This document shows, in pieces, positions 10,638-29,580 of a stretch of 64,000 nt of DNA; position 1 is the first letter of the stretch; each line of letters opens with the position of its first letter. The notes under the pieces are model-generated. The model saw only the letters and a list, made by a program, of their open reading frames with translations. It was not told the origin of the DNA and did no database searches. The stretch comes from Sulfurimonadaceae bacterium (GTDB lineage: Bacteria; Campylobacterota; Campylobacteria; Campylobacterales; Sulfurimonadaceae): NCBI GenBank assembly GCA_041571435.1, contig JBFFUI010000001.1:1-64000 (forward strand), given 5' to 3'. The position numbers and the translations under genes are program-made.

Positions 10638-11102
10638 ATGAAAAAGACATTGGTTCTTTTATCGCTTGCCTGTGCTGCTTTATCGGCAGCACCCATCGGT
10701 GCTGAAATCTTCAAACAGTGTGCCATCTGTCACGGAGATCAAGCCCAGAAGCATTCACTCGACGTCAGTGCTATCATCGCAGGCATGGATGCCAAAAAGA
10801 TCGTGGAAACGCTAAAAGGCTATCAGTCAGGCAAGCTTGATCAATACGGTTTCGGAAACATGATGCAGGGACAGGCAACAAAACTCTCAGAAGAGCAGAT
10901 GCATGCAGTCGCAACGTATGTCTCATCTTTGCCCCCTGTAAAAGAGGACGATGCCAAGAAAGCGGCCCCGCCAGAACCCACGATCACCAAAGAAGAGGTG
11001 AACTACAACAGCTTCATGAAAGCGTATTTCAAAGCAAACCCCAAAGCGACCTTCAAAGAGGCCAAACAGAAGTGGGACGACTCTCAGAAACAGGCAATAT
11101 AG
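10638..11102 (+). CDS. Monoheme cytochrome c553-like with C-terminal extension
   Basis: Signal peptide, CAICH, distal Met in GNMMQGQA. Confidence 0.9.
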   Translation: MKKTLVLLSLACAALSAAPIGAEIFKQCAICHGDQAQKHSLDVSAIIAGMDAKKIVETLKGYQSGKLDQYGFGNMMQGQATKLSEEQMHAVATYVSSLPPVKEDDAKKAAPPEPTITKEEVNYNSFMKAYFKANPKATFKEAKQKWDDSQKQAI

Positions 11103-11220
11103 CCTGATCCGTCTCATTCTAAACACCTTTTCGCCCATGCAGGTACCCTCTTGCCTGCTCAACCTTAATTAAAGTAAATGCAGGTATATTCTTAAAAAAT
11201 TTCAATAACCAAGGATTATA

Positions 11221-12072
11221 ATGAACAAAACATCTATCGCACTGGCGGCACTTTTACTGCTCCTCTCAGGATGCAGCGAGAAGCCGGAAGAGTCAGCAAA
11301 CACGGCCGAAGCCATCACGGAGAAAGCCGCACCGGCGCCAGCAAGCAAACCGGTCGACAACCTTTACGGAACATCGACGCAGCCACAGACGGCCGCAGCT
11401 CAAGAGAGCCAACCGCAGACCAACAATGTGCACGTGGCCAAGGTACTCGAAACCATGGATGCTTCCGGTTACACCTATGTCAAAGTCGATGAAGACGGCC
11501 AGGTCTACTGGATAGCAGGACCCGAGTCGAAAGTCACTGTAGGGAGCACCGTCTCGTATCTGGAGCAGATGATGATGCAGGACTTTACGAGCAAGACCCT
11601 GAACCGAACGTTTGAGATGCTGATGTTCACCAGCACTATCGTCCCGGAAGGAAAAGCTGATGCTGCCGCTGCTGCGGCATCTGCCGTTCCAGCGCAGCCG
11701 GCTGCACCGCACTACAGCGATACGCAAGCGGCGCAAAAAGAGCCGTCAGAAGCGATCAATGTCACCAAAGCGGAAGACGGTTACACGGTCGAAGAGCTCT
11801 ATGCCAAAAAAGCGGCACTCAAAGGACAGAAAGTCAAACTCAAGGCAAAGGTCATCAAGGTCTCTAAAAACATCATGGGCAAGGACTGGGTCCACCTCCA
11901 GGACGGGACAGGTGTCGCCGGCAGCAGTGATGACATTGTCGCGACCGGTCTGAATACAACGGTCAAGGCAGGTGACACCGTCACGGCGACGGCCACGCTC
12001 AACACCGATGTCGACCTTGGCTACGGCTACTTTTTTGCCGTCATCCTCGAAGAGAGCACCTTTACAAACTAG
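11221..12072 (+). CDS. NrfJ-like lipoprotein with OB-fold domains
   Basis: Lipobox LSGC; KVLETMDASGYTYVKV...FTSKTLNRTF; second domain IMGKDWVHLQDGTG...DLGYGYFF. Confidence 0.65.
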   Translation: MNKTSIALAALLLLLSGCSEKPEESANTAEAITEKAAPAPASKPVDNLYGTSTQPQTAAAQESQPQTNNVHVAKVLETMDASGYTYVKVDEDGQVYWIAGPESKVTVGSTVSYLEQMMMQDFTSKTLNRTFEMLMFTSTIVPEGKADAAAAAASAVPAQPAAPHYSDTQAAQKEPSEAINVTKAEDGYTVEELYAKKAALKGQKVKLKAKVIKVSKNIMGKDWVHLQDGTGVAGSSDDIVATGLNTTVKAGDTVTATATLNTDVDLGYGYFFAVILEESTFTN

Positions 12073-12252
12073 CCTTAGCCCCTCTTCGTCCCGTCGCGGT
12101 GTGTAGCACTGCGGCAAAACCTTTCCGAATCTTTAAATAAAAAAATATTATACTTTTTTATGTTTTTTTCATGTTTTTTTCATTTTAGCGCGATATACTA
12201 TAAGGTAATAGTGTATATAGAAAGAGTATGCACCGTTGAAGGAGTAATACAA

Positions 12253-13035
12253 ATGATAAAAAAGATAAACCTCTTGGCTGTCCTGCTTTTGGCATGCTCG
12301 CCATTAGTATATGGAGACATTACAGGCAGTCCGCATGACTTATCAGGGAAAACAACTGGTGCTGTAGGTTCTGATGACAATGGCGAACTGTGTGTCTATT
12401 GTCATACGCCTCACGCCGCAAATACCGCTTTTGACGGTGCACCGCTTTGGAACAAGACCGCAACAGCTGGACTTGATTATATGATGTATGGAGCTACGGC
12501 TGTTAACACGGCCGGTGCAACGATCGCCAACACCGCAACAGCAACGACACCGGCAAGCCCTTCACTGGCATGTCTGAGCTGTCATGACGGTATCAGCGCC
12601 ATCGATTCGATCGTCAATGCACCTGGCTCTGGAATGGGTGCTTTGGCAGCAGGTACGGCTGGACAGAATATCGTCGATGCACTCACAACTGCATACGGTG
12701 GTAATATCGGTGGGACTCCGGGTACTGCAACTGCCGGTACGACCGTTGACCTTTCAAACGACCACCCGGTCTCCATCCCTTATATGGGAACCGGTGCTAC
12801 AGACAGTCCAGCCAGCCTCAGAGCGACAACTTTTGATCTCACTACATACGGAGACGGTGTTGCATGGGTAGGCGCAACAACGATTGCCGATCTTCTTCGC
12901 AACGGCAACGTGGAGTGCGGCAGCTGTCACGATCCACACAATGGTGGTAAGGTACAGGGAACAGATACGGAAGTCAACTTCTTGCGACACTCCAATACAA
13001 ACAGTAACCTCTGTATTGGATGTCACGCGAAGTAG
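12253..13035 (+). CDS. Secreted tetraheme cytochrome c, OmcE-like
   Basis: ATG 12253 after GAAGGAG; signal peptide; HDLS, CVYCHTPH, PLWN, SLACLSCHDG, DLSNDHPV, ECGSCHDPH, FLR, LCIGCHAK-stop. Confidence 0.85.
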   Translation: MIKKINLLAVLLLACSPLVYGDITGSPHDLSGKTTGAVGSDDNGELCVYCHTPHAANTAFDGAPLWNKTATAGLDYMMYGATAVNTAGATIANTATATTPASPSLACLSCHDGISAIDSIVNAPGSGMGALAAGTAGQNIVDALTTAYGGNIGGTPGTATAGTTVDLSNDHPVSIPYMGTGATDSPASLRATTFDLTTYGDGVAWVGATTIADLLRNGNVECGSCHDPHNGGKVQGTDTEVNFLRHSNTNSNLCIGCHAK

Positions 13036-13079
13036 TCTTTATTTGGGTAAAAACCAGACACTTTACTTTCACTGCAAAC

Positions 13080-13102
13080 GGCAGGCGGGGCATGCCCCTG
13101 CC
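13080..13102 (+). terminator. GC-rich stem-loop downstream of the OmcE-like gene
   Basis: GGCAGGCGGGGCATGCCCCTGCC; core GGGGCATGCCCC palindrome; no strong U-tract. Confidence 0.45.
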
Positions 13103-13215
13103 TCTGCCTCTGCCTTCAATAAAGTTTTATTGATTATAATTAAAGTATTACCTTTGAACTGTTTTGTACAGTCTTAAGTTAATATTTAAAAAATGAAAAA
13201 TTTTAAAAGGGGTGT

Positions 13216-14307
13216 TTGGTGAGAACCGTTTTTCTTTTTACAGTAATGCTTTCCGTCTTTCTTTTTCAGGGATGTGCGACAAAACCTGAGGCTGTGCAAC
13301 AGCCCAAGATCGTCTTTCCATCTTATCCGGATGAACCGAAGATAGCGTATGTCGACACCTACCGGGGTGAGTCACAGAGTGAGAACGACGCCAGTGCCTT
13401 AGATCTCTTTCTGGGAGAAGACAAGGGTAGAAAGACAATCTCACCAGTCATCGTAAAACCCTACGGCGTCGGCCTGCAAGATGGCAAACTCTATGTCGCC
13501 GACACAGGTACCGACACGGTCTTCATTATCGATGAAAAGAGCAAAGAGGTCTCCTACATCGGCAACAATCCAGTCGGCAGGCTTGTCGCTCCCGTGGCCA
13601 TTGCTTTTGACAGTAACGGAACGGTCTATGTCAGCGATGCACGTCAGAAAAGGGTACAAGGCTACAACAAAGTAGATGGCAAGTTGAAGTTTGTGCTAGG
13701 AAGTCGGCTGGATTTTGTCCATCCCACCGGCATCGCGATCGATAAAAACTTAAACCGGCTCTATGTCGTCGACACCAAGGGGCACTGCTTTAAAGCATTT
13801 GACATTGCGACGAAAAAACTTCTTTTCACCATCGGCGAGCGGGGGAGAGGTGACGCACAGTTCAACTTCCCGACCAATGTCGCCGTCGACCAACGCAACG
13901 GTAATATCGTCATTGTCGATACACAGAACTTCCGTGTTCAGATCTTTGACAAGGAGGGCAAGTTTATACGCCGTTTTGGAAAGATCGGCGATAGACCCGG
14001 AATGTTCGCACGCCCCAAAGGTGTCGGCATCGATACGGAGGGACATATCTACGTCAGTGATGCCGCCTTTAACAATGTCCAGGTCTTTAATGAGACGGGA
14101 GAGCTGCTGCTCTACTTCGGCGCCGCCGGCTACACACCAGCGACGTTTCGTCTTATCGCAGGAATCTTTATCGATGAGACCGACAAGATAGCGATTGCTG
14201 ACGGCTTCAGCGGACGGGTACAGACCTTTCAGTACCTGAGCAAAAAGTGGAAAGCAGCGCACCCCGATGAATATAACGAGCTCAAAGAGTTCAAACCAGA
14301 AATTTGA
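13216..14307 (+). CDS. NHL-repeat six-bladed beta-propeller lipoprotein
   Basis: Lipobox FQGC; repeats PxGIAxD...YVxD...RVQxF. Confidence 0.9.
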   Translation: MVRTVFLFTVMLSVFLFQGCATKPEAVQQPKIVFPSYPDEPKIAYVDTYRGESQSENDASALDLFLGEDKGRKTISPVIVKPYGVGLQDGKLYVADTGTDTVFIIDEKSKEVSYIGNNPVGRLVAPVAIAFDSNGTVYVSDARQKRVQGYNKVDGKLKFVLGSRLDFVHPTGIAIDKNLNRLYVVDTKGHCFKAFDIATKKLLFTIGERGRGDAQFNFPTNVAVDQRNGNIVIVDTQNFRVQIFDKEGKFIRRFGKIGDRPGMFARPKGVGIDTEGHIYVSDAAFNNVQVFNETGELLLYFGAAGYTPATFRLIAGIFIDETDKIAIADGFSGRVQTFQYLSKKWKAAHPDEYNELKEFKPEI

Positions 14308-14321
14308 GATGAAGGAATAAT

Positions 14322-15254
14322 GTGAAAATACTCTTTTTCATGCTCTTGCTAAACTGTTTTGTTGCAGCTGGAGAAGTCCTGCTGCCCGAAGCAACCGTTG
14401 CCGTCGTTAACGGCATCGCCATCTCAGAAGATGAGCGGGACAAAGAGGTCGGTAAACTGATGCCCAAGGCCTATTTTCATTCTACGTTGAATGACGAAAA
14501 GCTTAAAGTCCTGCAAGAGAAGGCAACTGCATCCCTTATAGAGAAAACACTTTTGTATCACTATGCGCTCTCCCAGGATCTGCGTGTCACTGATACTGAG
14601 ATCGCAAAGGTAATTGCGAGACTGCAAGCGGCATATGGCTCCAAAGTGGAACTGGATCGGGCCATACAACGTCTGGGGTTTACACCCGAAGCGTTCAAGA
14701 CCGCAATCAAGAAAGACGAGGTCCTTAAGAAGCTGTACAAAAAAGAGATCGAAGCAAGCTATAGTGATGAAGAGCTCAAAACGTATTACGAGAAGAACCG
14801 GTACAAATTCAAAGAGCCCGAGAAGATCAGGGTGCGTCTTATCTATGTCAGAAACGACCCTAAAGATCCTGACGGAAAACAAAAAGCAAAGCTTAAGATC
14901 GAAGAGGCCTACAAGAAGCTGCAAGAGGGTGCCCTCTTCGCCGACGTTGCTGCAGCCCATTCCAATGCGATGAGTCGTATCAATGGTGGGGACATGGGTT
15001 ATCTTCACAAGGGACGGCTTGATGAAGCGGTCGAGGAGATAGCATTTGCCATGAAGGCGGGCGAGATGAGCAAGGTAATCGAAAAAGATGTCGGGTATTA
15101 TATCGTCAAGGTCGAAGATAAAAAAGTGTCAAATCAGTTGTCCTTCGACATCGTCAAAGAAAGCCTCAGAAAAGAGTTGAAACAGCGAACAGAAGACGAA
15201 CGAAAAAGTACGCTGCTTGCCAAATTAAAAGCAACCGCCGTGATCATAAAGTAG
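14322..15254 (+). CDS. PpiC/SurA-type peptidyl-prolyl isomerase chaperone
   Basis: VAVVNG..I, FADVAAAHS...GGDMGY...AFAMKAGEMS...GYYIVKV. Confidence 0.9.
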   Translation: MKILFFMLLLNCFVAAGEVLLPEATVAVVNGIAISEDERDKEVGKLMPKAYFHSTLNDEKLKVLQEKATASLIEKTLLYHYALSQDLRVTDTEIAKVIARLQAAYGSKVELDRAIQRLGFTPEAFKTAIKKDEVLKKLYKKEIEASYSDEELKTYYEKNRYKFKEPEKIRVRLIYVRNDPKDPDGKQKAKLKIEEAYKKLQEGALFADVAAAHSNAMSRINGGDMGYLHKGRLDEAVEEIAFAMKAGEMSKVIEKDVGYYIVKVEDKKVSNQLSFDIVKESLRKELKQRTEDERKSTLLAKLKATAVIIK

Positions 15255-15263
15255 TAAAAAACG

Positions 15264-17051
15264 ATGAAACATACGCTTCTTGTCCTTTTGTCGCTCTGGT
15301 ATGCAGGCTCTTACTTGCTGCATGCCGCCGACTATCCGGACAGAGGCTTCTATGGCAGCTTGAATTTTTACTATATCGATGACAAATACGAAACAGGGCA
15401 ATTCTATAACGCACAGCAGGACTTTGTACAGGAATATAAGCTCGGTTACATCGGTAACATCTACAGTCCCCGTCTGCTCGACTACACCCTAGAGGGGCTT
15501 TTTCGAATCGAAGACATCAAAACGCAGAACACGGGCAGCGAAGGCAAGACAAATATCAAGAGCCAAGACTACAAGATCAACATGAACTTCATCAAAGAGA
15601 CCAACTACCCTTTTACTGTCTACGCACAAAAGACCGACCGACCGGTCTCTACCATCTACAGCACATCAAGCACACGATATGAGCAGGAGCTAGAGCGCTA
15701 CGGTCTTCAAGGGGCATTGAAGTTCGATCTCTTTACCGTTGCGTACGGGGCCACCAGACAAAAGAGTCTCTATGACCGTCTCTTTACCTACCAGGAGATA
15801 GAGAGCGACCTCTACAAGGCATCCATACGTCGCAGCAAACAAGCCTACAGTTACCAGTTGGGCTACAGCCACCTAGAGCGCAATGTCAACACCACGACAC
15901 TTACAGACAGCAACATCTCGACCAACGAAGTCGATGATACCGTGGACTTCACCTATCGATGGAAGATCTCGGATACACTGACCTTCAACTCTGATGCCCG
16001 CTATACCGACAGCGAATACTACAAATACAAGACGACGATAGCCAACCTTTACCTGCGATGGCGGCCCAAGAAACAGTACAACGGTAGCATTGCCGTAAGC
16101 GGCAGCCATACCGACCACTTTAGCGATACGAATGACACCAGGATCTATTCTGAGACCGTCGACACCTTGGATGTCTCTCAGATGTTCAGCTACATGCCGA
16201 CATCAGACCTGACCTTCACCGAGAACATCGGCTTCCATACCTATAAGACAAGCGTTGTCGAAGGCGACAATGCCAATCTTAGGCTTGGTGCCCACTACAA
16301 CAAGCAGCTCACCCAAGACACCAGAGTGCGCATGTCGGGAAGCTTTGATACGCTTACAAACGAGACCCGTAGGAAGCCGACGCTTACCAATGATCTCAAT
16401 GGGACGACGAGACGAAATAGCTATACCCTCGATGCCCGTGCCACAGTGACCGAAAAGTTGCCTTCACTAAGGTCAACACTGGATGTCGGCGGGAACTACT
16501 ACATGGTGCGGACCTCACTGGATGAGAAGCGCGACCGCTACAGCGCCAACCTCGCGTTTGCCTCGCAACTGACAAGCGGATTGCGCAACAGGTTTGATGC
16601 AAGCTATCTCAATGAACAGGGGCGCGCTATCTTTCTGCGAAACAATGTTGATGAGTTTGTCTACCGCTCTGTCATCCGGACCGACATCAGCGAATACCTT
16701 GACTATACGACCCGTCTTGGCGTTAAAGGACGGGTAACAGGAAAACTGGGACTGCGCTATTCGGATATTGAGAACGATGGGCTTCACATAGAACGGATCG
16801 TACCACGGGCGGACCTGACCGTAAACTACCGCTTTTTTCAGCGGCTGATCGTTGCAGCCGGTGCCCATGCTGACAGGGATTTGAGCTATAATTATATGAA
16901 TTACTCCGGCAATGCAAGCATCAACTACAGTATACGTAAAACCACGTTTAGGATGGGCTATCAGTATTATAAAACAGAAAGAACTGATGACCTGTTCTTC
17001 CCCGATTATGAACGCACGCGGTTTGAGATAAAATTAACACGGACATTTTAA
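15264..17051 (+). CDS. Outer-membrane beta-barrel protein
   Basis: Signal peptide; Tyr/Thr/Ser-rich alternating strands; C-terminal beta-signal RFEIKLTRTF. Confidence 0.75.
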   Translation: MKHTLLVLLSLWYAGSYLLHAADYPDRGFYGSLNFYYIDDKYETGQFYNAQQDFVQEYKLGYIGNIYSPRLLDYTLEGLFRIEDIKTQNTGSEGKTNIKSQDYKINMNFIKETNYPFTVYAQKTDRPVSTIYSTSSTRYEQELERYGLQGALKFDLFTVAYGATRQKSLYDRLFTYQEIESDLYKASIRRSKQAYSYQLGYSHLERNVNTTTLTDSNISTNEVDDTVDFTYRWKISDTLTFNSDARYTDSEYYKYKTTIANLYLRWRPKKQYNGSIAVSGSHTDHFSDTNDTRIYSETVDTLDVSQMFSYMPTSDLTFTENIGFHTYKTSVVEGDNANLRLGAHYNKQLTQDTRVRMSGSFDTLTNETRRKPTLTNDLNGTTRRNSYTLDARATVTEKLPSLRSTLDVGGNYYMVRTSLDEKRDRYSANLAFASQLTSGLRNRFDASYLNEQGRAIFLRNNVDEFVYRSVIRTDISEYLDYTTRLGVKGRVTGKLGLRYSDIENDGLHIERIVPRADLTVNYRFFQRLIVAAGAHADRDLSYNYMNYSGNASINYSIRKTTFRMGYQYYKTERTDDLFFPDYERTRFEIKLTRTF

Positions 17052-17056
17052 GGAAT

Positions 17057-18067
17057 ATGATGAAGATTTTTTTGTGGATAGGCCTCGTTCTGATGACAAC
17101 AGAAAGTCTGCAGGCTAAAGCAGCCGAAAGACTAGTCTGGCCTGCGGCACCGGACCCGGCCAGGATCGAATATCTCTCAGCCGTGACAACGGCCAAAGAC
17201 ATAGGGATAAAAAAAGGTTTTTTTTCGAAGATCAGCGATTTTCTTTTTGGGGATGAAGAGAAGGGACTGAACGCACCCTTTGGAATCCACGCCGATGCAC
17301 AAAAGGTCTATGTCACCGATATCGGCGCCAAGACAGTGACGGTTTTTGACAAAAAAGAGGAGGAAGTCATCACAATAGAAGGGCCGAAGGAGAAGCGCTT
17401 TCTCTACCCTGTCGATGTTGTTTCGGACAGCAAAGGCAATATCTATGTTTCCGATTCGGTGCTGGCTAAAGTCTATGTCTTTGACAGTGACGGGGACTTC
17501 ATTCGCACTATCGCACCCAAAATGCTGCAAAGACCCGTCGGTATCGCTATCAGTGCGGATGGCAAACGGCTTTACATAGTCGATGCACTCGCCAGTCAGA
17601 TCCATATGACGACATTAGAGGGCAAATATGTCCGTTCCATCGGGCGTAAAGGCAGTGGTCAAGGGGAGTTTAACCGGCCGACCTATATCGATGTCGGCAT
17701 CGATGGCAAGATCTATCTCTCCGACTCGATGAACCACTGTATTCAAGTACTCGACAGTGAAGGCAACTTTATCCGTACCTTCGGCCATCTGAGCAAGAAC
17801 ATCGGTGGCTTTGGAAGTCCGCGCGGTATTGCCATCGACAGCGACGGCAATATCTATGTCAGCGACACGCTTTTCAACGTGATCCAGATCTTCAACCCTG
17901 ATGGGCAGCTGCTGATGCTCTTTGGGCAGTACGGCAGTGAACGCGGTGCCTTTGCACTTCCTGTCGATATCTCGATTTTGCCGGATAACACCATCTTTGT
18001 CAGTGACACCAACAACCGACGTTTTCAGCTCTTTAAGCGGCTGGATCCACCAAAAGCGAGGAGATAG
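17057..18067 (+). CDS. NHL-repeat beta-propeller protein (second paralog)
   Basis: VWPAAPDPARIEY N-terminus parallels VFPSYPDEPKIAY of 13216; NHL repeats. Confidence 0.9.
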   Translation: MMKIFLWIGLVLMTTESLQAKAAERLVWPAAPDPARIEYLSAVTTAKDIGIKKGFFSKISDFLFGDEEKGLNAPFGIHADAQKVYVTDIGAKTVTVFDKKEEEVITIEGPKEKRFLYPVDVVSDSKGNIYVSDSVLAKVYVFDSDGDFIRTIAPKMLQRPVGIAISADGKRLYIVDALASQIHMTTLEGKYVRSIGRKGSGQGEFNRPTYIDVGIDGKIYLSDSMNHCIQVLDSEGNFIRTFGHLSKNIGGFGSPRGIAIDSDGNIYVSDTLFNVIQIFNPDGQLLMLFGQYGSERGAFALPVDISILPDNTIFVSDTNNRRFQLFKRLDPPKARR

Positions 18068-18069
18068 CA

Positions 18070-20142: not shown

Positions 20143-20151
20143 GATCCGGTC

Positions 20152-20673
20152 ATGAAATCATTTGTCCTGGGGATCTCTGCTTTACTTATCTTTGCAGCAA
20201 CGCTGCATGCCAACGAGGACAAAGCCGTCAAGCACGCCCTGCTCAAATACAACTACGGCATCATCAAGATGGCTAAAAGCGGCGAGACCGAATTTTTTAA
20301 AAGTTTTGTCAACAAGGAGATCGTGACCAAGCTGATGCTTTGGGTCAAGGCCTGGCAGGATAACAACCTTGTCATGCTTGCCGAGATCAAAGACTTCCGG
20401 TTCGGCCCTATCAACTACAGCGGAGACCGTGCTACGATAACGACGATGGAGAACTGGAACTTCACCTATGTCGACATCGCAACGCGAAAAGTGGCAGCAG
20501 AGAAGGTCACCATGTTATATAAGATGCGCTACACGCTTCAGCAACAAAAAAACGGCTGGATGATCGTCGACATCCAGCATCTCGATGAGAAGCAGGTCAA
20601 TGTACCGGAGGACCATCCCGCGACAGGAAAAGGTGTCTCTGCCTATCCGCAAAGCGACATTGCGACACACTGA
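20152..20673 (+). CDS. Secreted hypothetical protein, possible NTF2-like fold
   Basis: Signal peptide; ATITTMENWNFTY...MRYTLQQQKNGWMIVDI pattern. Confidence 0.6.
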   Translation: MKSFVLGISALLIFAATLHANEDKAVKHALLKYNYGIIKMAKSGETEFFKSFVNKEIVTKLMLWVKAWQDNNLVMLAEIKDFRFGPINYSGDRATITTMENWNFTYVDIATRKVAAEKVTMLYKMRYTLQQQKNGWMIVDIQHLDEKQVNVPEDHPATGKGVSAYPQSDIATH

Positions 20674-20719
20674 AAACACACGTTATCTAAGAACTTAACG
20701 ACACAAGGAATATATAGAG

Positions 20720-23700
20720 ATGATTATTAAAAAGGTCTGGTCACTGCTGATCTCAATGAAGCTGATGCTGCTTCTGTTACTGCTCTTTGCCATCGCGAGC
20801 GGCGTAGCAACGTTCATAGAAAATGATTACGGCGTCAACACGTCATGGGCGCTTGTCTACAGCACACGGTGGTTCGAGGCCATCCAACTGCTTCTCGGTA
20901 TCAGCATCATCGGCAATATTTACCGATACAAAATGTACAAAAAGAAAAAATGGCCCGCCTTTATCTTTCATCTCGGGTTCCTGGTCATTCTGGTGGGTTC
21001 GGGTATCACCCGCTATTACGGTTATGAAGGCGTTATGCACATCCGTGAAGGCAACAGTGAACACCGCATCCTCTCATCCGATGCCTTTTTGCAGATTACT
21101 GCAAAGAAAAACGACAACACCTATTATGCAGAAGATATCGTCTACATATCAGAACTCGGCGGCAGAAAATTTCAAAACAGCCTGAAGGTAGACGGAAAAG
21201 AGGTTGTCGTTACATATAAAGACTTTATCGACAAGGCCGTAAAGACCGCCGTCGAAGATCCGGCCGGAACACCGATCGTCGTGTTCGTGATCCCGACACC
21301 GCAAGGACCCGAAAAGTATTTCTTGCGCAGCGGGGAGTCGGTTGACGTCGGACCATTGGCCGTCTATTTCGACAAGGCCCCGACTACCGACAAACCGTTT
21401 ATACGCTTTTTCAGCGACAACGGGGAGATCCGTTTCGTCTCCAATGTACCAATCCCCTGGATGAAGATGATCAACCGTTCGCAAGGTGTCTATAGTGCGA
21501 ATACCGATTATGAACTCGATGCGCGGCGCATGTACACCATCAACGGCGTGCAGCTCGTTACCAAATCAGTCCTCAACAAAGGATCTGTCAAAGTCGTAAG
21601 CGAAGCGAAATACAAAGAGTCCATGAAGATGCAGATGAAGATAGATTCTCTCTCTGCACTGGTCGTGGATGTGGCCTATGACGGCAAACATAAAGAAGTG
21701 ACACTTCTGGGCAAAGGCAAACGGTACAAAGGCTTTACCGAAAACCTGACTATCGGCGACGTTACCCTCTCTCTTGAATGGGGTTCCAAGACCATAAGGC
21801 TACCTTTCTCACTCTACCTTCGTGACTTTATCCTGGTAAAATATCCCGGCTCGATGAGCCCGTCGTCGTATGAGAGTCATGTGACTTTAGTTGATGAAGC
21901 AAACGGTATCCAGGAGGGGCACAGGATCTACATGAACCACACGCTTGACTACGGCGGTTTTCTCTTTTTCCAATCCTCTTACGACAAGGATGAGCAGGGA
22001 ACGATCCTCTCGGTCAACCATGACCCGGGCAAGTGGCCGACCTATGTCGGCTATATCCTTCTTGCCATCGGTATGTTTTTCAACCTGCTGAATCCTAACA
22101 GCCGTTTCGGAAAACTGGCACGTACCAAGTACGAATACCGCGCCAATGCGCTGCTGCTTGCGGTACTTCTTGCAGCGCTGTTCTATACGGAACCTCTCTC
22201 GGCATCTTCGAGTCAGCAAGCGGCACCGGTCGATATGGAAGCGCTTCTTGATGATGTCAAAAAAATCGACCGCGGGCATGCCGACCACTTTGCGACAATG
22301 CTGGTGCAAGGACGTGACGGACGAATCAAGCCGCTCGACACACTTGCCATAGACCTGCTCAACAAGATATCAGGCAAAAACAGTCTGCATGGTATGAATC
22401 ATAACCAGGTTATCTTGGGAATGGCCACCAAACCCGATGCATGGAAACAGATCGAGATGATCAAGGTATCGCATCCGAAAGTCAAAGAGATACTCGGGAT
22501 AAAAGCGTCACAGAAGCGTTTTGCCTATGCTGTAGCTTTTGACAAATTCGGGCAGTACAAGCTTGGTGATATAGCCGAAGAAGCGCTTCGAAAGCGTGCG
22601 GCGGAAAGAGACAAATACGATAAGGATCTGATCAAAGTGGATGAGCGGGTCAATATCGCCTACATGATCTATTCCGGCCGTTTTATGACCGTGTTCCCGA
22701 TGGAAGGCGATCTTGACAACAAATGGTACTACCCGGACCATGCGATGAAGAACTTCCCGCCAAAGTATCGCAATGAAGTGTATGAACTGCTCAAGAACAA
22801 CAGTGCAGGGTTCTCAAAAGGGCTCAATGACGGTGACTGGAAAATGGCTGACAGTGCGATAGATGCCATCAAGGCATACCAGTACAAGTATGGTTCGTCG
22901 ATCATCCCGGAGGCAACACTGATCAAAGCAGAGCTTCTCTACAATAAGCTGGATATCTTTGAACGCCTTTTCCCGATCTATCTGATAGCCGGATTTGTTT
23001 TGCTGGTGCTGATCTTTGCCCGTCTCGTCAAGCCGGCGCTTAATTTGAAGATAGCCATGCGTATTGTTCTGACTATCTTCGTGGCCGGTTTTGTAGCACA
23101 TACACTTAGCCTTGGCCTGCGATGGTACATTGCCGGACATGCCCCATGGAGCAACGGATATGAGGCGATGCTCTATATCTCCTGGACGATCATCCTCGCT
23201 GGTATCCTTTTTGCGCGAAGTTCCGAACTGGCATTGGCGACGACAGGTATCTTTTCGGGGATTGCCCTCTTTGTCGCACACCTGAGCTGGCTTGACCCGC
23301 AGATCACCACGATGGTCCCGGTACTCAAGTCCTACTGGCTGACTATCCATGTCTCCATCATTACCGCAAGTTACGGTTTTCTTGGCCTAAGCACACTCCT
23401 CGGATTTGTCTCGTTGATCTTCTATATGATGCTCAACAATGAAGCAAAGCGCGAACGTATCAGTGTGAATATCCTCGAATCGACCCGTATCAGCGAGATG
23501 TCGATGATCGTCGGCCTCTCACTGCTCACGGTAGGTAACTTCCTGGGCGGCGTCTGGGCAAACGAATCATGGGGACGCTACTGGGGCTGGGATCCAAAAG
23601 AGACCTGGGCACTGGTGACCATTCTGGTCTATGCCTTTGTCATCCACATGCGTTTTATACCGATGCTGCGTTCCAACTTTGTCTTCAATGCCATTTCGGT

Positions 23701-23893
23701 TGTTGCCTACAGTTCTGTTATAATGACCTATTTTGGTGTCAACTACTATCTCTCCGGTCTGCACTCCTATGCCGCCGGTGATCCTGTACCCGTTCCGGTG
23801 TGGGTCTACTATGCAGTGACCGTAGTTGCCGCCGTTATTATTGTTGCATCGTTTAACCGTAACAAATTGATGCAGATAAAACCCGTAAATTGA
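20720..23893 (+). CDS. ccsA: Fused system II cytochrome c synthase (CcsBA/NrfI type)
   Basis: ResB-like N-terminal half (IFHLGF, IYMNHTLDYGG..FFQSSYD); WWD motif WANESWGRYWGWDPKETW; GLHSYA. Confidence 0.92.
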   Translation: MIIKKVWSLLISMKLMLLLLLLFAIASGVATFIENDYGVNTSWALVYSTRWFEAIQLLLGISIIGNIYRYKMYKKKKWPAFIFHLGFLVILVGSGITRYYGYEGVMHIREGNSEHRILSSDAFLQITAKKNDNTYYAEDIVYISELGGRKFQNSLKVDGKEVVVTYKDFIDKAVKTAVEDPAGTPIVVFVIPTPQGPEKYFLRSGESVDVGPLAVYFDKAPTTDKPFIRFFSDNGEIRFVSNVPIPWMKMINRSQGVYSANTDYELDARRMYTINGVQLVTKSVLNKGSVKVVSEAKYKESMKMQMKIDSLSALVVDVAYDGKHKEVTLLGKGKRYKGFTENLTIGDVTLSLEWGSKTIRLPFSLYLRDFILVKYPGSMSPSSYESHVTLVDEANGIQEGHRIYMNHTLDYGGFLFFQSSYDKDEQGTILSVNHDPGKWPTYVGYILLAIGMFFNLLNPNSRFGKLARTKYEYRANALLLAVLLAALFYTEPLSASSSQQAAPVDMEALLDDVKKIDRGHADHFATMLVQGRDGRIKPLDTLAIDLLNKISGKNSLHGMNHNQVILGMATKPDAWKQIEMIKVSHPKVKEILGIKASQKRFAYAVAFDKFGQYKLGDIAEEALRKRAAERDKYDKDLIKVDERVNIAYMIYSGRFMTVFPMEGDLDNKWYYPDHAMKNFPPKYRNEVYELLKNNSAGFSKGLNDGDWKMADSAIDAIKAYQYKYGSSIIPEATLIKAELLYNKLDIFERLFPIYLIAGFVLLVLIFARLVKPALNLKIAMRIVLTIFVAGFVAHTLSLGLRWYIAGHAPWSNGYEAMLYISWTIILAGILFARSSELALATTGIFSGIALFVAHLSWLDPQITTMVPVLKSYWLTIHVSIITASYGFLGLSTLLGFVSLIFYMMLNNEAKRERISVNILESTRISEMSMIVGLSLLTVGNFLGGVWANESWGRYWGWDPKETWALVTILVYAFVIHMRFIPMLRSNFVFNAISVVAYSSVIMTYFGVNYYLSGLHSYAAGDPVPVPVWVYYAVTVVAAVIIVASFNRNKLMQIKPVN

Positions 23894-23910
23894 TAAATCA
23901 AGGAGTCGTT

Positions 23911-24522
23911 ATGAAACAGTGGCTTATAGCAGCAATTGCAGCTTTTTTCTTGAGCGGATGCTCGACACTTCAGGTGGAGATCGACAGTGATCCGGGGTAT
24001 GATTTCACCGCGCTGTCAAAATTCAATGTCATGTATACCAAGAAGAATGATGACAAAGACTTTTCTCGCAGCCGATTTAGCAAGATGCTGACGGCATACT
24101 TCGAAAAGAAAGGCTATGTCGCTGTCGATAAAGCTGATGCCGACTTCTATCTGATCTTCCACCTCGACATTACCAAAAAAAGTGAGATCGAGACGAACTA
24201 CGAAACGATGGATTTGCATCCGCGCATCGAGTACTATAACCACAGAGCTTATCCGACGCCAGATATGCCGGGTATCTATGCAGACCCCTATCGATATGAC
24301 GACAGAAGAACCGTGGCAACCACCCGTACCTATGAGTATGAAGAGGGAATATTGGTCATCGAACTGTTAGACGTTAAGCAGAATGCCGTTGTCTGGCAGG
24401 GGGTAGCCCAGGATGAACTCTCCAGTCTGCCGACACAAGAGGCCAAAAGCGCCTACATCCAAAAAGTGTTGGACAAATTGTTTGGCGACTTTCCGTCAAA
24501 AACTCCGCAAAAGCAAAAGTAA
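23911..24522 (+). CDS. DUF4136-type lipoprotein
   Basis: Lipobox LSGC; YEEGILVIELLD...VVWQGVA. Confidence 0.75.
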   Translation: MKQWLIAAIAAFFLSGCSTLQVEIDSDPGYDFTALSKFNVMYTKKNDDKDFSRSRFSKMLTAYFEKKGYVAVDKADADFYLIFHLDITKKSEIETNYETMDLHPRIEYYNHRAYPTPDMPGIYADPYRYDDRRTVATTRTYEYEEGILVIELLDVKQNAVVWQGVAQDELSSLPTQEAKSAYIQKVLDKLFGDFPSKTPQKQK

Positions 24523-24550
24523 GCAGCGTCTGCCAGATAGCGACGTAATT

Positions 24551-24566
24551 GGAGCAATATTGCTCC
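24551..24566. terminator. Perfect 16-bp palindrome (terminator or operator)
   Basis: GGAGCAATATTGCTCC after the DUF4136 gene. Confidence 0.4.
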
Positions 24567-24697
24567 GTTATACACCTGCCTAATCTTATTAAATATTATT
24601 ATAAGTTCAATCATGGAATAATTGAGTAATAGATATGTATAAGAAATATTTAATTTTACAGGTAAGTATGATGTCTACAGTACAAAACGGAGCGTAA

Positions 24698-25303
24698 GTG
24701 GGTAAAAAACGAAGCATTGTCATAACTTTTTCAACTCTTTTTGTACTGATGAGCAGTCAGATATTGACAGCACCGCTGGCTGCAGAGGAATCGCGGATTC
24801 AACAGGAGATGGCATCGCCGATGCCTGAAATCCCGTTACAAAGAGCTATGGGTAAAGAAGCTTATGACAAAGCAATGGCCTCCGGGCAGTACCGCTATCT
24901 TGACAACTCGAAATGCCGCCTCTGCCACCGCGAGTTTTTTATCGGTCGTAAAAACGATGCACATGACCATGCCATGGAAAATCTTGTCAAAAGTGGTCAT
25001 GACAAGAACCCTCGCTGCCTGACCTGCCATACGACCGGGTACGGCGTTGAGACCGGATTTGTCAATATGAAAAACACGCCTCGCCTCGCCAACGTCCAGT
25101 GCGAAGGATGCCACGGCCCCGGCAATGTTCATGTCGCCCAAGTAAAAGGCAAACAGGGATTTAAAGGTTTTCTTGCCGGACTGGACCATCCGGAGCGCCT
25201 GAAGAAGATGTGCACAAGTTGCCATACAAAACGCTGGAACCGTTCCTACCATGACCTGCAAAAAACGTATAAAAAATACGGTAAAGCGAATCCGAATGAT
25301 TAA
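24698..25303 (+). CDS. Tetraheme cytochrome c (c554-like domain)
   Basis: CRLCH, CLTCHTTGYG, NVQCEGCHGPG, CTSCH. Confidence 0.85.
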   Translation: MGKKRSIVITFSTLFVLMSSQILTAPLAAEESRIQQEMASPMPEIPLQRAMGKEAYDKAMASGQYRYLDNSKCRLCHREFFIGRKNDAHDHAMENLVKSGHDKNPRCLTCHTTGYGVETGFVNMKNTPRLANVQCEGCHGPGNVHVAQVKGKQGFKGFLAGLDHPERLKKMCTSCHTKRWNRSYHDLQKTYKKYGKANPND

Positions 25304-25312
25304 GGGTTCAAA

Positions 25313-26851
25313 ATGATAACAGCGATCTTCGGTTACCTTAAAAAGTACAATGTCGCTGCCCTGTTACTTACGCTCGTATTGAGTATCTCCTACCTCGCTT
25401 TTTACAACTACGACAAACAAAAAGATCTCCTACTCACTCAGATGAAAAGTGACACCGAGCATATCGTAAGCTCGATCTCATCAGCGATGCAGCGTTTTCA
25501 CGACATCAAGTCGACGATGAACCTTCAAAAACTGGTCAATGATGTCTCGTTCGGCCTTGAGATCTTCGAATTTCGCTATATGGAACCCAACGGTATTATC
25601 AAGAACTCTATGTTCAGCGAAGAGATCGGCAAGCAACACAGCGCCGAAAGTTTCAAGGAGGTCCTCCAGCGAAAACGAAAGTTGAAAACTTTCTTTTTCG
25701 AGGTACGTGATTATGTAAAGGTCATGGCCATCTATTATCCGATCTATCGCAACAAAAGGCTGATCGGCATCATCGATCTGGCCGTCGATGTCTCTGAATA
25801 TGCAGTGATCACCGGCCTTGATACCGATTTCGCACTGACACGCCGAAAAGTCGACATTTTAAACCTTCTTAAATCGATCGAAGGTTCCATAGAAAACAGC
25901 CTTGCTGTTTTTGAAGAGACCGATATGCACAACTTTTTGCGTGCTTATGTACAGTCTGCAACCAATATACTGGAAGTGTCACAGATCGATTCCGACAAAA
26001 AGGTCCTGATCAGTAGCAATAACAAAATAATCGGGAAGACCTTGAAGGCCGACAAACTGCTCCCTCTCGAACTCATCGAGCACGAAGGACACCAAGCCTA
26101 CAGAACAGTAACTGATATTGGCCAACTTAATGGGGATGAGAACAGCAAATTGATCATATTGATCGATGCCGCTCCCTATGAAGCCAACAGACGTCAGCTC
26201 TTGCAGACAGCCCTGATCACCTGTGTCATCGCGCTTATTATAGCCCTCTTTATTGCCAGATCGATCTACTACTTTGCACTGGAACGCTCACGCAGCGAGA
26301 AAGAGCGCCTGGAACGTCTGGTCAAAGAGCGTACGCATGAGATAGAGTTGTTAAGCAAGACCGATGGCCTCACTGGTCTGTGGAACCGCGGCTACCTCGA
26401 AGAGATGCTCGAGATGGAGTATAAGCGCGCGCGACGCTACATGCATGATGTTTCGATAATGCTCATCGACCTTGATCACTTTAAGCGTATCAACGACACC
26501 TATGGGCATATGGCCGGTGACGAAGTACTACGTCAGGTCAGCCAGCGTATCCGATGCTGTGTGCGCGAAACGGACTTTGTCGGACGTTACGGCGGTGAGG
26601 AACTGGTCATCATCCTGCCTGAGACGACAATTGTAGCAGCCCAGACAATTGCCGGCAACATTCTTAAGCGCATTGCGGAAGAGCCTGTCGTATTTGAATC
26701 GCATATCATTGATGTCACGACAAGTATTGGTCTGAACAACTTGCGTCTCACCCATAACAATTACCAGGCAGTCTTTGCTGAAACCGACGAAGCACTGTAT
26801 CGTGCAAAAGAAGAGGGACGCAACAGGGCCGTAGTCTTTAAGGCCGATTGA
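25313..26851 (+). CDS. Sensor diguanylate cyclase with periplasmic domain
   Basis: Two TM helices around a ~260-aa periplasmic region; DGLTGLWNR, RETD I-site, GGEEL. Confidence 0.9.
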   Translation: MITAIFGYLKKYNVAALLLTLVLSISYLAFYNYDKQKDLLLTQMKSDTEHIVSSISSAMQRFHDIKSTMNLQKLVNDVSFGLEIFEFRYMEPNGIIKNSMFSEEIGKQHSAESFKEVLQRKRKLKTFFFEVRDYVKVMAIYYPIYRNKRLIGIIDLAVDVSEYAVITGLDTDFALTRRKVDILNLLKSIEGSIENSLAVFEETDMHNFLRAYVQSATNILEVSQIDSDKKVLISSNNKIIGKTLKADKLLPLELIEHEGHQAYRTVTDIGQLNGDENSKLIILIDAAPYEANRRQLLQTALITCVIALIIALFIARSIYYFALERSRSEKERLERLVKERTHEIELLSKTDGLTGLWNRGYLEEMLEMEYKRARRYMHDVSIMLIDLDHFKRINDTYGHMAGDEVLRQVSQRIRCCVRETDFVGRYGGEELVIILPETTIVAAQTIAGNILKRIAEEPVVFESHIIDVTTSIGLNNLRLTHNNYQAVFAETDEALYRAKEEGRNRAVVFKAD

Positions 26852-26915
26852 GCTCAGACAGGTTTGCAGGACGTTCTAATTACATTTCTGCTTTTATCCT
26901 GTTGTCAGACACGTA

Positions 26916-27944
26916 CTACTTCTGATGACAGCGTTGGCACACGTTAAACGGCATTGAGCCCTTCATTCTCAGAAGACTGATCCCGCTTGAACCATGGGGA
27001 TTGTGGCAGCTGCTGCAATAAAACTTTCTATGCGGTCGTGCCGGGTCCTTGTCGCCTTTAGTCGGATGGGCACCCGCGTTTCGTCCAAAGACAAAACTGG
27101 AAACAACATGCTTCCCGCTGGCTTTTTCCGCATGACAGGTCGTGCAGAGCTCCCATACCGGCTTACGCAGGAAAAACTCGTTGTCTGAACCATGCGGGTT
27201 ATGACAACGCTCACACCGTCCATCATTGACGGGTCCATGGACATAACGGTTATTATCCCACTTTTTGACTTTGTCATGGCACTTTTCACACACCTTGTTT
27301 ACGGGGTCGCGCACCAAATATTTTGATATGTCATCAGACGGCGTATCATAGGCGCCGAGTTTGCCGTCATGACAATCTGTACAGCGCCAGTTTATGGTCG
27401 GCGCATGGCTGTTGCGCTTTGACACCAAGCTTTTGTGGCACGTGTAGCATGTCGTCTGTGACACATCGTCAAAGACCTTGTCTCCGGTGGGAATGTTGGA
27501 TTTCATATTATGGCATGAAGCACAGACTTTCTCCTTTTCGTCGACATGGAAAAAGCCTTCTTCGTAGGCATCAGGATCGTCATCAAACCCTTCATAAAGT
27601 TCAGGCAGGAAGAAGATATGGCGTTGGGACTGCTGTACCTTGAGACCCTTAAGATAGTTCGTCACCGTAATGATGTTTTCACCCTTGTCAATCTTTATGG
27701 TCTTACAGTAGGTCTCTTTTTTCGGATCGGCTTTCAATTCGTAAGAACTGTTGTTGTCCACTTCAATCAGCACAGTATCTATATCATCAGCAGATGCTTT
27801 TACAACAATAGTGACAAGCTCCCCGTCATAACGAAGGTAGTCAGCAGGTGCCAATAGATCTACCGGCGCCAAAGGCTCTGCCGCCTTAGTGATTGCCATA
27901 GCAAGGCAGAAGAGGAAAACGAGTCTAAGAAGTGTCATATGCAC
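26916..27944 (-). CDS. Octaheme cytochrome c (doubled-CxxCH type)
   Basis: 8 CxxCH; HGPV...CERCHNPHGS pattern; N-terminal non-heme beta-rich domain. Confidence 0.88.
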   Translation of the reverse strand: MHMTLLRLVFLFCLAMAITKAAEPLAPVDLLAPADYLRYDGELVTIVVKASADDIDTVLIEVDNNSSYELKADPKKETYCKTIKIDKGENIITVTNYLKGLKVQQSQRHIFFLPELYEGFDDDPDAYEEGFFHVDEKEKVCASCHNMKSNIPTGDKVFDDVSQTTCYTCHKSLVSKRNSHAPTINWRCTDCHDGKLGAYDTPSDDISKYLVRDPVNKVCEKCHDKVKKWDNNRYVHGPVNDGRCERCHNPHGSDNEFFLRKPVWELCTTCHAEKASGKHVVSSFVFGRNAGAHPTKGDKDPARPHRKFYCSSCHNPHGSSGISLLRMKGSMPFNVCQRCHQK

Positions 27945-27945
27945 A

Positions 27946-29169
27946 TTACTTAAGGTTTACTTTCGGCGTCTCACGATCGTAATGACGTCGGGCATGACAC
28001 GCCGGTGCACACGAACCGCCTGTCGGTGTCTCGATATAACGGATCGGAAAGTCGATCTTGCCAAAGTGTGTCTTTTTGCGAAGGTGGTGCGGGTACTCTT
28101 TTGTACCATGGAAATCGTGACAGGCACGACATGTACGTCCTTTCTCTCTATCAACATGGACAAAGTGCATGTTTTTGTCGCCATTTCTAAAGTTGGTTGC
28201 AGTAAGCGTCTTTTCATCCTTGATCTTTTCGGGTTCATGACACTCGAAACAGATATAGTTCTTTTCATCGAATTTCTGATAGAAACTTCTCGGGAACGGT
28301 TTTTTAAGCATCCTCAGGTTGTTCGACCCGTGAGGATTGTGACAGGCGGCACAGTCACCCCAGAGAATCGGACCGTGCCAATCCGGGTTTTGCTCCAGAT
28401 GCTTCGCCATATTGGCCAGTTTATGCCCCTCTTCGTCTGTTGTCAGACTTTGATTGTGACAGCTTAGACAAAGATCTTTGGCCGTGTCTTTGACCAGGAA
28501 CTTTGGATTTTCGGAACCGTGGGGGTCATGGCACTCAAGACATTTACGCGGACGATTCAGTGCCCCATGTTTTGCCGTGACCGTATTGATCCATACCTCT
28601 TTGTCCGTATGACACATGACACAGAGGTCTTTCTTGCCGTCAGCCTTAAGCTGGTACTGGTGGTCCTCTGTATGCGGATCATGGCAGTTCGTACATTGGT
28701 CTTTAACCGGCGGGTGGATGTTGCTCGTCTTTTTCAGGAACTCGCCTTTTGCCTGGTGGCACGAGGTACAAAGCTCGTTGATACTTGATGCGACCAGCAG
28801 TTTAGCATTGTCCGATTCATGCGGATTATGACACGCCGTACACGCACCTGCTGCTACCGGCCCGTGAACGAACTTTTTGTCCCCCTTTTCTCCATGACAC
28901 ATGACACAAAGTTCAGGTGGTTCCATGACCAGTTCTACACCGCCTTTTGGATCCGTATGACAAACGGTACAGTCACCCCATTCGTATGGAGGGTGCACCA
29001 CTTTTTTCGGTGCACGCAACGCTGTCCCGAAAAACTTTTCATCCTCGGTCAGTACGACCTCTTTTGCTGCAGATGCATTTGTCTCAACCGATGCTGCTGC
29101 AAAAAGGTTTGAAGACAACAGCAGTAACCCCGCCCATTTTCCGATAGCACACATATATCTGTTTTTCAA
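27946..29169 (-). CDS. ~12-heme periplasmic cytochrome c (doubled-CxxCH type)
   Basis: 11 CxxCH plus terminal CX3CH (CAPACH); repeated HGP...CxxCHxPH-S units. Confidence 0.88.
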   Translation of the reverse strand: MKNRYMCAIGKWAGLLLLSSNLFAAASVETNASAAKEVVLTEDEKFFGTALRAPKKVVHPPYEWGDCTVCHTDPKGGVELVMEPPELCVMCHGEKGDKKFVHGPVAAGACTACHNPHESDNAKLLVASSINELCTSCHQAKGEFLKKTSNIHPPVKDQCTNCHDPHTEDHQYQLKADGKKDLCVMCHTDKEVWINTVTAKHGALNRPRKCLECHDPHGSENPKFLVKDTAKDLCLSCHNQSLTTDEEGHKLANMAKHLEQNPDWHGPILWGDCAACHNPHGSNNLRMLKKPFPRSFYQKFDEKNYICFECHEPEKIKDEKTLTATNFRNGDKNMHFVHVDREKGRTCRACHDFHGTKEYPHHLRKKTHFGKIDFPIRYIETPTGGSCAPACHARRHYDRETPKVNLK

Positions 29170-29235
29170 TTGTTTCCCTTAATCTTTAAATCTCGTTGAC
29201 ATCTCATTCTGAGGAGAAGCACTCTCTCATTTGTC

Positions 29236-29580
29236 TTATAACGGACGATCAGAAGCGGCGATAATGTACTCAGCCAATGCGCGCATGTCCTCTTCGAACA
29301 GTGTACGTATTTTGATTAGTTGCGGGGCCATTACAGAGGCGCGTGTCGGGTCAATGATCGCACTGCCTTGTCCCTGAAGATACGGAACCAATGTGCTCTC
29401 CTTGCCTGCATAACCGATGGCAATTGTCTTTAGAGAAGGCCCGATTGTGTCAAAATCCGGTTTATGGCACATTGCACACCCTTTCTCTTCAAAAATCGTT
29501 TTACCCTGCTCGTTTTCTGCAAAAGCACTACTGATCAAGAACGTTGCTGCCAATGATAAACCCAATATTAACTTTTTCAT
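29236..29580 (-). CDS. Monoheme class I cytochrome c
   Basis: Signal peptide, KGCAMCH...IGPSL, distal Met (VMAPQ). Confidence 0.9.
   Translation of the reverse strand: MKKLILGLSLAATFLISSAFAENEQGKTIFEEKGCAMCHKPDFDTIGPSLKTIAIGYAGKESTLVPYLQGQGSAIIDPTRASVMAPQLIKIRTLFEEDMRALAEYIIAASDRPL

Follow-up and report, generated by a model that had tools for sequence, protein, structure and literature searches.

A probable OmcE-type extracellular cytochrome cluster in a Sulfurimonadaceae bacterium

The stretch of DNA analysed here (the window) covers 64,000 nucleotides, positions 1 to 64,000 of the forward strand of contig JBFFUI010000001.1 (assembly GCA_041571435.1) from a Sulfurimonadaceae bacterium, and contains at 10638-29580 a block of cytochrome and accessory genes that probably encodes an OmcE-type extracellular cytochrome ('nanowire') system of a Sulfurimonas-like sulfur oxidiser. 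The block is read as an OmcE-type extracellular electron-transfer (EET) cluster because its parts fit that function together: a tetrahaem subunit related to the filament protein OmcE, the accessory genes that follow it, a longer 'headed' cytochrome that starts with an OmcE module, a haem lyase of its own, and a convergent cytochrome operon; export and polymerisation of the subunit are predictions, as is the direction in which electrons run.

Seven secreted c-type cytochromes lie within the block, whose two ends are the start codons of the outermost monohaem cytochrome genes, and the translated open reading frames (ORFs) carry 39 CxxCH motifs (1+4+10+4+8+11+1, in the c553-like, OmcE-like tetrahaem, 690-aa, c554-like, 342-aa, 407-aa, and 114-aa proteins, respectively), together with exactly three atypical haem motifs, C-X12-CH and C-X5-CH in the 690-aa protein and C-X3-CH in the 407-aa protein. 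The Pfam and NCBIfam matches comprise two NHL propellers, a PpiC/SurA-like protein, a ResB and CcsA fusion, DUF4136, a cytochrome c554-like protein, and a Cache-GGDEF protein, and a signal peptide or lipobox can be read from the sequence at the N-terminus of all cluster products. An earlier, sequence-only reading of this DNA had listed the same seven cytochromes, the same motif totals, and the same gene order, with which the ORFs, the counts, and the family matches agree; its name 'NrfJ-like' for the gene at 11221-12072 is unverified, the product having no haem motif and no significant Pfam or NCBIfam match. A promoter and terminator consensus scan of 10400-29900 gave 21 vs 22.5 and 17 vs 18.9, respectively, which is the level of the shuffles. 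A look for sequencing runs gave four DNA runs of a single marine-metagenome study, a possible source of this DNA, and no RNA run.

The OmcE-type subunit and the headed cytochrome

The tetrahaem protein matches in phmmer, over its full length, chain A of PDB entry 7tfs (E=3.8e-20; residues 39-291 of the long ORF to 11-232 of the chain), which we take to be the OmcE filament of Geobacter sulfurreducens, the entry itself being labelled 'Cytochrome c'. Its identity to OmcE from G144, a Geobacter-type genome whose omcE locus (L121) serves below as the reference cluster, is 30% (E=3.6e-23); between that OmcE and 7tfs it is about 80% (E=7e-119). The four CxxCH motifs (C47/C50/H51, C107/C110/H111, C222/C225/H226, and C254/C257/H258) are invariant in 25/25 homologues from several phyla, as are H28, H54, H171, and H229, Geobacter-type OmcE included, and the same ligand set is invariant in a separate alignment (14/14 sequences). 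Four CxxCH motifs and further histidines are named as the conserved haem ligands of OmcE in section 7 of Petersen et al. (mBio 2026, PMC13712944), and a passage of PMC9473688 has an OmcE haem ligated by a histidine of the neighbouring subunit. Judged by its sequence, the tetrahaem protein is a true OmcE relative. The sequence-only reading had identified the gene correctly but had started it at 12160, and the ATG at 12253 is the most likely start, favoured by a ribosome-binding site (AAGGAG, 8 nt upstream) and by the homologues, which start likewise. Just 3' of the stop codon, within the 180-nt gap before the next gene, a G+C-rich hairpin was seen at 13060-13110; the gap folds better than shuffles (z=-2.9), the consensus terminator scan raised no flag there, and the hairpin, acting as an attenuator, may raise the dose of the subunit above that of the accessory genes.

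The headed cytochrome (690 aa) matches 7tfs as well (residues 9-224, E=2.8e-25), the complete OmcE module extending over about residues 22-245. Its N-terminal module aligns in register with OmcE proteins and keeps the four CxxCH motifs and the four extra histidines, so that with the ligands of both proteins in register the two OmcE-like calls of the sequence-only reading are borne out. Where OmcE proteins have DHPV, the headed class has an invariant HHPV, which gives nine histidines for four haems. Two atypical motifs are present besides the 10 CxxCH, a conserved C-X12-CH and, at the C-terminus, a C-Xn-CH of variable spacing. The conserved site reads C-X12-CH in 23/25 family members and C-X13-CH in the other two, and its C299, C312, and H313 are invariant in 25/25. 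A profile of the headed family retrieved 780 representative proteins at E<=1e-30, and many of the best 150 match it head-to-tail in one stretch.

The 690-aa protein looks like a fusion, because both of its halves are found as adjacent genes in G144. At 7461-10559 on the minus strand of one of its loci (L130, G144:C1:3052000-3067999), an NHL propeller gene, an OmcE-like tetrahaem gene of the HHPV type, and a 7-haem gene occur together, the 7-haem gene adjoining the HHPV-type gene and matching residues 256-552 of the headed cytochrome. An OmcS-like identity for the C-terminal domain was considered and rejected; its Geobacter-type homologues, cytochromes of about 365 aa, match nothing in the PDB apart from a weak hit to NrfH (E=0.0014). 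The closest relatives of this domain in G144 are two such cytochromes of about 365 aa (L124 and L125, G144:C1:1838769-1846012), each preceded by a 290-aa PKD/Ig-like repeat protein, and both loci adjoin leuB. For the headed cytochrome, AlphaFold2 (AF2) with an alignment of 25 rows gave no usable fold (mean predicted local distance difference test, pLDDT, 34; predicted TM-score, pTM, 0.22).

These features bear on a question posed by Petersen et al., that of the anchor or tip of an OmcE filament. According to the discussion section of that paper (PMC13712944), an ideal anchor was proposed with the nine-histidine count, and the omcE operons examined there encode no OmcE-like candidate for an anchor or tip. 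By its sequence, the headed cytochrome is a candidate for either role.

Outer-membrane components, synteny, and the haem lyase

The 595-aa barrel has no family match in Pfam or NCBIfam. Its AF2 model (27-row alignment; pLDDT 89.4, pTM 0.70) has 28 strands and lacks a plug domain, and the best fold match among PDB chains (Foldseek) is MtrB (6r2q_B; E=2.8e-11, query TM-score, TMq, 0.49, identity 11%), followed by TonB-dependent receptors and LptD at a TM-score of about 0.3. MtrB itself has 26 strands. The first propeller and the propeller lipoprotein encoded next to omcE in L121 share 33% identity (E=1.3e-51), homologues of the second propeller adjoin OmcE-like genes in the Geobacter-type genome, and the position of the PpiC gene is conserved in relatives. 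The PpiC protein could not be traced to an osc-type cluster in the Geobacter-type genome, where its best match sits among non-cytochrome genes. The small secreted protein behind the headed cytochrome has homologues in 20 ORFs of the related loci and a weak Atlas lead to a SnoaL-like cluster (score 0.91). The propellers, the prolyl isomerase, the large MtrB-like barrel, and a cluster-specific CcsBA accompany the subunit, which supports the sequence-only reading on this point.

The nearest known system is the omcE cluster of Desulfuromonadia, as in G. sulfurreducens and in D. soudanensis with its OmcE bundles. The reference locus L121 belongs to this kind. It comes from G144, one of 39 genomes with a match among 401 sampled from the phylum that includes a Syntrophus-titled locus; the gene order of L121 (pur genes, resB, ccsB, a 9-haem gene, an 8-haem gene, an NHL lipoprotein gene, omcE, the gene of a 746-aa barrel, and glycosyltransferase genes) is the synteny given for Desulfuromonadia in section 8 of Petersen et al. 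(PMC13712944). The four CxxCH motifs and four histidines of the tetrahaem subunit are common to both clusters, as are a β-propeller lipoprotein, a large barrel (its fold class established for the window barrel alone), adjoining haem-maturation genes, and two homologous periplasmic multihaem cytochromes in the same order. In tblastn, the 12-haem protein is 38% identical to the first of these cytochromes in L121 (13737-14747; E=4.9e-65) and the 8-haem protein 28% identical to the second (12725-13717; E=8.7e-38), and the comparison with an omcE neighbourhood that the sequence-only reading had called for returned homologues of the 12-haem, 8-haem, and NHL genes. The window differs in adding the PpiC protein, a second propeller that is not a lipoprotein, the headed cytochrome, the small secreted protein, and a fused CcsBA paralogue, in a barrel of 595 aa instead of 746 aa with no clear sequence similarity, in the lack of an adjoining glycosylation island, and in a cytochrome operon that begins with a monohaem c and has been relocated to a convergent position.

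The resemblance to the osc (OmcS-companion) system of G. sulfurreducens is one of domain classes only, namely a prolyl isomerase (OscH), channels (OscE/F/G), and the propeller-like OscD; in the part of PMC13194489 that treats their proposed roles, OscH is a folding chaperone, OscE/F/G are secretion channels, and OscD acts on the wire. The window subunit differs in being of the OmcE type and not an OmcS-type hexahaem, and no OmcS chain was found among the PDB matches of the tetrahaem protein or the headed cytochrome (E<=10).

Among 41 related genomes, a tetrahaem homologue was present in 5/41, this one included (3/15 other genomes of the genus, 1/9 from other genera of the family, and 0/16 from other families of the order), so that the survey suggested by the sequence-only reading shows a patchy cluster. 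The nearest public loci are titled almost all Sulfurimonas, Sulfurimonadaceae, or Campylobacterales, and in 80 related loci, from which the synteny counts are drawn, the commonest Campylobacterota order is monohaem c, 12-haem, 8-haem, omcE, NHL, PpiC, barrel, NHL, headed cytochrome, small protein, and CcsBA, all on one strand. The core of NHL, PpiC, barrel, NHL, and headed cytochrome follows omcE in 17/22 Campylobacterota loci with >=8 kb downstream, and because the same order recurs in so many of them the gene set is not a chance assembly; the small protein and CcsBA come after the core in 14/21 Campylobacterota loci, and the c1, 12-haem, and 8-haem operon lies directly upstream of omcE in 16/24. 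At the set thresholds, the full core was found in 3/18 loci of other phyla, all Nitrospirota, and a partial core in one Nitrospinota locus and in the Syntrophus-titled locus. The whole cluster is present in cultured Sulfurimonas sp. CS5 (L035). The lineage of the window has the cytochrome operon downstream and convergent, behind the DUF4136, c554-like, and GGDEF genes, a variant that two relatives, G002 and G004, also have; behind the block of G004, neither malic enzyme nor GltX was found. Variations in the number of OmcE-like genes were also seen, with three in tandem in L061 (9103-11700), an additional one between the first propeller and PpiC in L032, L034, and L044, and two headed cytochromes in tandem in L037 (14952-19700).

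The genome has two CcsBA genes, 45% identical to each other. A copy >=70% identical to that of the window is present in 5/5 omcE-positive and 0/36 omcE-negative genomes of the 41, a count made on related genomes, which are not independent samples; 34 of the 36 negative genomes have copies of <=55% identity only, and two, both incomplete, have none. In 3/5 positive genomes the >=70% copy lies on the same contig as omcE. Dedicated lyases of the CcsBA type occur in Wolinella succinogenes, where NrfI serves CxxCK and CcsA1 serves the CX15CH of MccA. Because these lyases are analogous, the cluster CcsBA would be expected to mature the unconventional haem sites of the cluster: in both cases, a Campylobacterota genome has a housekeeping CcsBA and a second copy beside a cytochrome with an unconventional motif. 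The cases differ in that the motif here is C-X12-CH, the cytochrome belongs to another family, and the specificity of the lyase is a prediction.

Electron route and competing explanations

The proposed mechanism starts in the periplasm, where the cluster CcsBA would attach haem to the cluster cytochromes, also at the conserved C-X12-CH of the headed protein, a site that the housekeeping lyase is perhaps unable to mature, and where PpiC may hold the largely coil-structured subunit in an assembly-competent state. The 28-strand MtrB-like barrel and the two NHL propellers would pass or anchor the cytochrome chain across the outer membrane, and the subunits would polymerise head to tail, each ligating a haem of its neighbour through the invariant N-terminal histidine, as OmcE does. 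The headed cytochrome, with its nine-histidine OmcE module, may dock on a filament end, its extra haems coupling that end either to the periplasmic side, as an anchor, or to the substrate, as a tip. Electrons would enter from the periplasmic cytochrome c pool through the monohaem c to the 12-haem and 8-haem proteins, the pool being fed by sulfur oxidation and the bc1 complex and not by a CymA-type quinol dehydrogenase; the electrons would end up on insoluble acceptors, for example Mn(IV) or Fe(III) oxides, or in partner cells. The link to the cytochrome c pool is suggested because the block holds two class I monohaem cytochromes and no CymA/NapC-type dehydrogenase was found. Within the locus no inner-membrane quinol dehydrogenase is encoded, nor does the genome have a NapC/NirT family match above the cut-off, and the description 'self-contained' given in the sequence-only reading is not supported.

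Outward flow is slightly favoured over uptake. A use of the same hardware mainly for uptake, from Fe(II) minerals, cathodes, or partner cells through the cytochrome c pool to a terminal oxidase or nitrate reductase, is the less probable direction, though one to be taken seriously: the two monohaem cytochromes and the lack of a CymA/NapC-type dehydrogenase suit it, since the pool can feed terminal oxidases, and a passage of PMC9473688 describes Mtr-type wires as bidirectional. Nevertheless, no sequence feature of the cluster sets the direction, and Sulfurimonas physiology, in the portions of PMC9122950 and PMC11748539 that concern it, points to an acceptor role of solid Mn(IV) oxide.

A porin-cytochrome conduit without a filament is an unlikely explanation. 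Here the barrel would surround either the headed cytochrome or the 12-haem and 8-haem proteins, in the way that MtrB encloses MtrA, the OmcE-like protein would be a monomeric or oligomeric surface cytochrome, and electrons would cross the outer membrane only and not travel micrometres. The likeness to MtrCAB of Shewanella (PDB 6R2Q) lies in a large plug-less outer-membrane barrel encoded among multihaem cytochromes, with MtrB of that complex as the best fold match, and in partial matches to the DmsE/MtrA family (TIGR03508) of the 12-haem (111 bits) and 8-haem (80 bits) proteins; the headed cytochrome scores 27 bits. All of these scores, however, are under the 192-bit cut-off, so that no cytochrome of the window reaches the DmsE/MtrA family, the barrel model has 28 strands and a TM-score of 0.49, and an OmcE-type subunit is present. 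Section 7 of Petersen et al. (PMC13712944) points out that OmcE-like tetrahaem sequences occur widely and do not necessarily all form wires, but the subunit of the window retains the invariant N-terminal histidine and all ligands of filament-forming OmcE, and its neighbours, a barrel and a β-propeller lipoprotein, are those used in the same section to pick nanowire-competent homologues. A purely periplasmic redox module acting on a soluble sulfur or nitrogen compound, with the propellers as enzymes, the barrel as a substrate porin, and no EET, is very improbable, since the weak NrfA matches of the headed cytochrome (E=0.003-0.04 over 36-66 residues) span haem-motif stretches only, no gene has a catalytic family at cut-off in Pfam or NCBIfam even though NHL propellers include enzymes, a 28-strand plug-less barrel far exceeds the needs of a solute porin, and the subunit is homologous to a filament protein over its full length.

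The OmcE-type filament system is preferred over these alternatives, and several observations count against it. The identity of the subunit to OmcE is no more than about 30-34%, with differing loops, and a second solved OmcE-type chain, 9yuq, is matched by Geobacter-type OmcE, unlike the window subunit, which does not match it even at E<=10. The barrel aligns in hhalign with only 76 N-terminal columns of the 746-aa Geobacter-type barrel (probability 46%), and its profile found nothing in the G144 genome at E<=1; PpiC and the headed cytochrome are absent from L121; and the patchy occurrence among related genomes and the lack of a quinol dehydrogenase module within the locus point the same way. 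Polymerisation, surface location, and an EET phenotype are predictions, and the physiological part that cytochrome filaments play in the EET of Geobacter is a matter of dispute (PMC11077965).

Petersen et al. (PMC13712944) list Campylobacterota among five phyla with omcE clusters, that is, omcE homologues with a porin and a β-propeller neighbour. An omcE cluster in Campylobacterota is therefore not new as a kind, and the novelty is lower than the sequence-only reading had assumed when it knew of no characterised locus in sulfur-cycling Campylobacterota, a statement that holds insofar as the literature search, in which Campylobacterota omcE clusters were mentioned once, found no characterised member. 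Titles and abstracts on Sulfurimonas with nanowires or multihaem cytochromes gave no such cluster. The architecture, with PpiC, the headed cytochrome as a candidate anchor or tip, and a dedicated lyase, appears to be new, although figures or supplements of Petersen et al. may already depict it.

At redox boundaries in the sea and in groundwater, Sulfurimonas belong to the most abundant sulfide oxidisers, and two observations suggest EET in the genus. In the relevant part of PMC9122950, the sulfide oxidation of some strains is linked to solid Mn(IV) oxide by a mechanism that is not given there, and a passage of PMC11748539 reports that Sulfurimonas correlate with cable bacteria and that no complete conduit had been recognised in them. 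An OmcE-type wire with its own pore, chaperone, and lyase is a candidate for this missing Sulfurimonas EET route to minerals or partner cells. A wider picture may be entertained tentatively, in which Sulfurimonadaceae, Nitrospirota, and other groups would share a second OmcE cluster architecture, the headed cytochrome would be the terminal subunit (barrel anchor or substrate tip), the private CcsBA would install the C-X12-CH haem, and the machine would be the Sulfurimonas route to solid Mn(IV) oxide or to cable bacteria.

Positions of the features and neighbouring genes

Table 1. Genes of the cytochrome block and its immediate flank, with positions in the window.
Feature	Position	Strand	Evidence or remark
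Sel1-repeat protein	9801..10571	+	Pfam Sel1 E=3.6e-45; travels with the block in relatives
Monohaem class I cytochrome c, c553-like, candidate periplasmic carrier	10638..11102	+	1 CxxCH; PF00034 E=2.2e-7; signal peptide
Lipoprotein, family not assigned ('NrfJ-like' in the sequence-only reading)	11221..12072	+	0 CxxCH; lipobox LSGC
OmcE-type tetrahaem cytochrome, putative filament subunit, 260 aa precursor	12253..13035	+	PDB 7tfs E=3.8e-20
NHL β-propeller 1, probable lipoprotein	13216..14307	+	PF01436 E=6e-27
PpiC/SurA-like prolyl isomerase chaperone, periplasmic	14322..15254	+	Rotamase_3 E=8e-20; SurA_N_3 E=7e-13
Outer-membrane β-barrel, 28 strands, plug-less, putative pore or sheath	15264..17051	+	AF2 model; signal peptide; C-terminal Phe
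NHL β-propeller 2, signal peptide, without lipobox Cys	17057..18067	+	PF01436 E=5.8e-24
'Headed' multihaem cytochrome, 690 aa	18070..20142	+	OmcE module and C-terminal multihaem domain; 10 CxxCH
Small secreted protein, conserved after the headed cytochrome	20152..20673	+	No Pfam/NCBIfam match
CcsBA (ResB-CcsA fusion) haem lyase paralogue, cluster-specific	20720..23893	+	PF05140, PF01578
DUF4136 lipoprotein, peripheral, uncertain link	23890..24522	+	PF13590 E=7e-25
Cytochrome c554-like tetrahaem protein, peripheral	24698..25303	+	4 CxxCH; PF13435 E=5.8e-14
Membrane Cache-GGDEF diguanylate cyclase, possible regulator, uncertain link	25313..26851	+	GGDEF E=2e-47
8-haem periplasmic cytochrome, 342 aa	26916..27944	-	8 CxxCH; homologue in Geobacter-type omcE cluster
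12-site cytochrome, 407 aa	27946..29169	-	11 CxxCH and C-X3-CH; homologue in Geobacter-type omcE cluster
Monohaem class I cytochrome c, 114 aa, first gene of the convergent operon	29236..29580	-	1 CxxCH; PF00034 E=1.8e-9

The genes at the margins of the block recur with it to different extents (Table 1). In relatives, the 114-aa monohaem gene stands before the 12-haem gene. The Sel1 gene lies upstream of c553, lipoprotein, and omcE in L012, L037, L038, and L062, and in L030 it occurs with c553 and the lipoprotein about 8 kb upstream; homologues of the lipoprotein at 11221-12072 are found beside c553 in L012, L030, L037, L038, L049, and L062. A c554-like gene and a GGDEF gene also stand beside the c1/12-haem operon in L041, and the DUF4136 and GGDEF genes keep their place in G002 and G004. 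Whether c553, the lipoproteins, the c554-like tetrahaem protein, and the diguanylate cyclase belong to the system is uncertain, the one argument for it being this co-travel in close relatives.

Elsewhere in the window, an N-linked protein glycosylation (pgl-type) cluster occupies 43120-51374, about 14 kb from the cytochrome cluster, with genes for three family-2 glycosyltransferases, a PglB/STT3 oligosaccharyltransferase (45687-47777), an epimerase, a family-4 transferase, and a polysaccharide biosynthesis protein. Geobacter OmcE is glycosylated; a D/E-x-N-x-S/T sequon was not seen in the OmcE-type subunit on inspection by eye. The left end of the window carries an IS200/Y1-type transposase ORF (179-952) in a low-GC stretch (GC 0.37), and the window as a whole encodes three GGDEF diguanylate cyclases, at 2461-3585, 25313-26851, and 61813-63759, with MASE6, Cache, and dCache_3 sensors, respectively.

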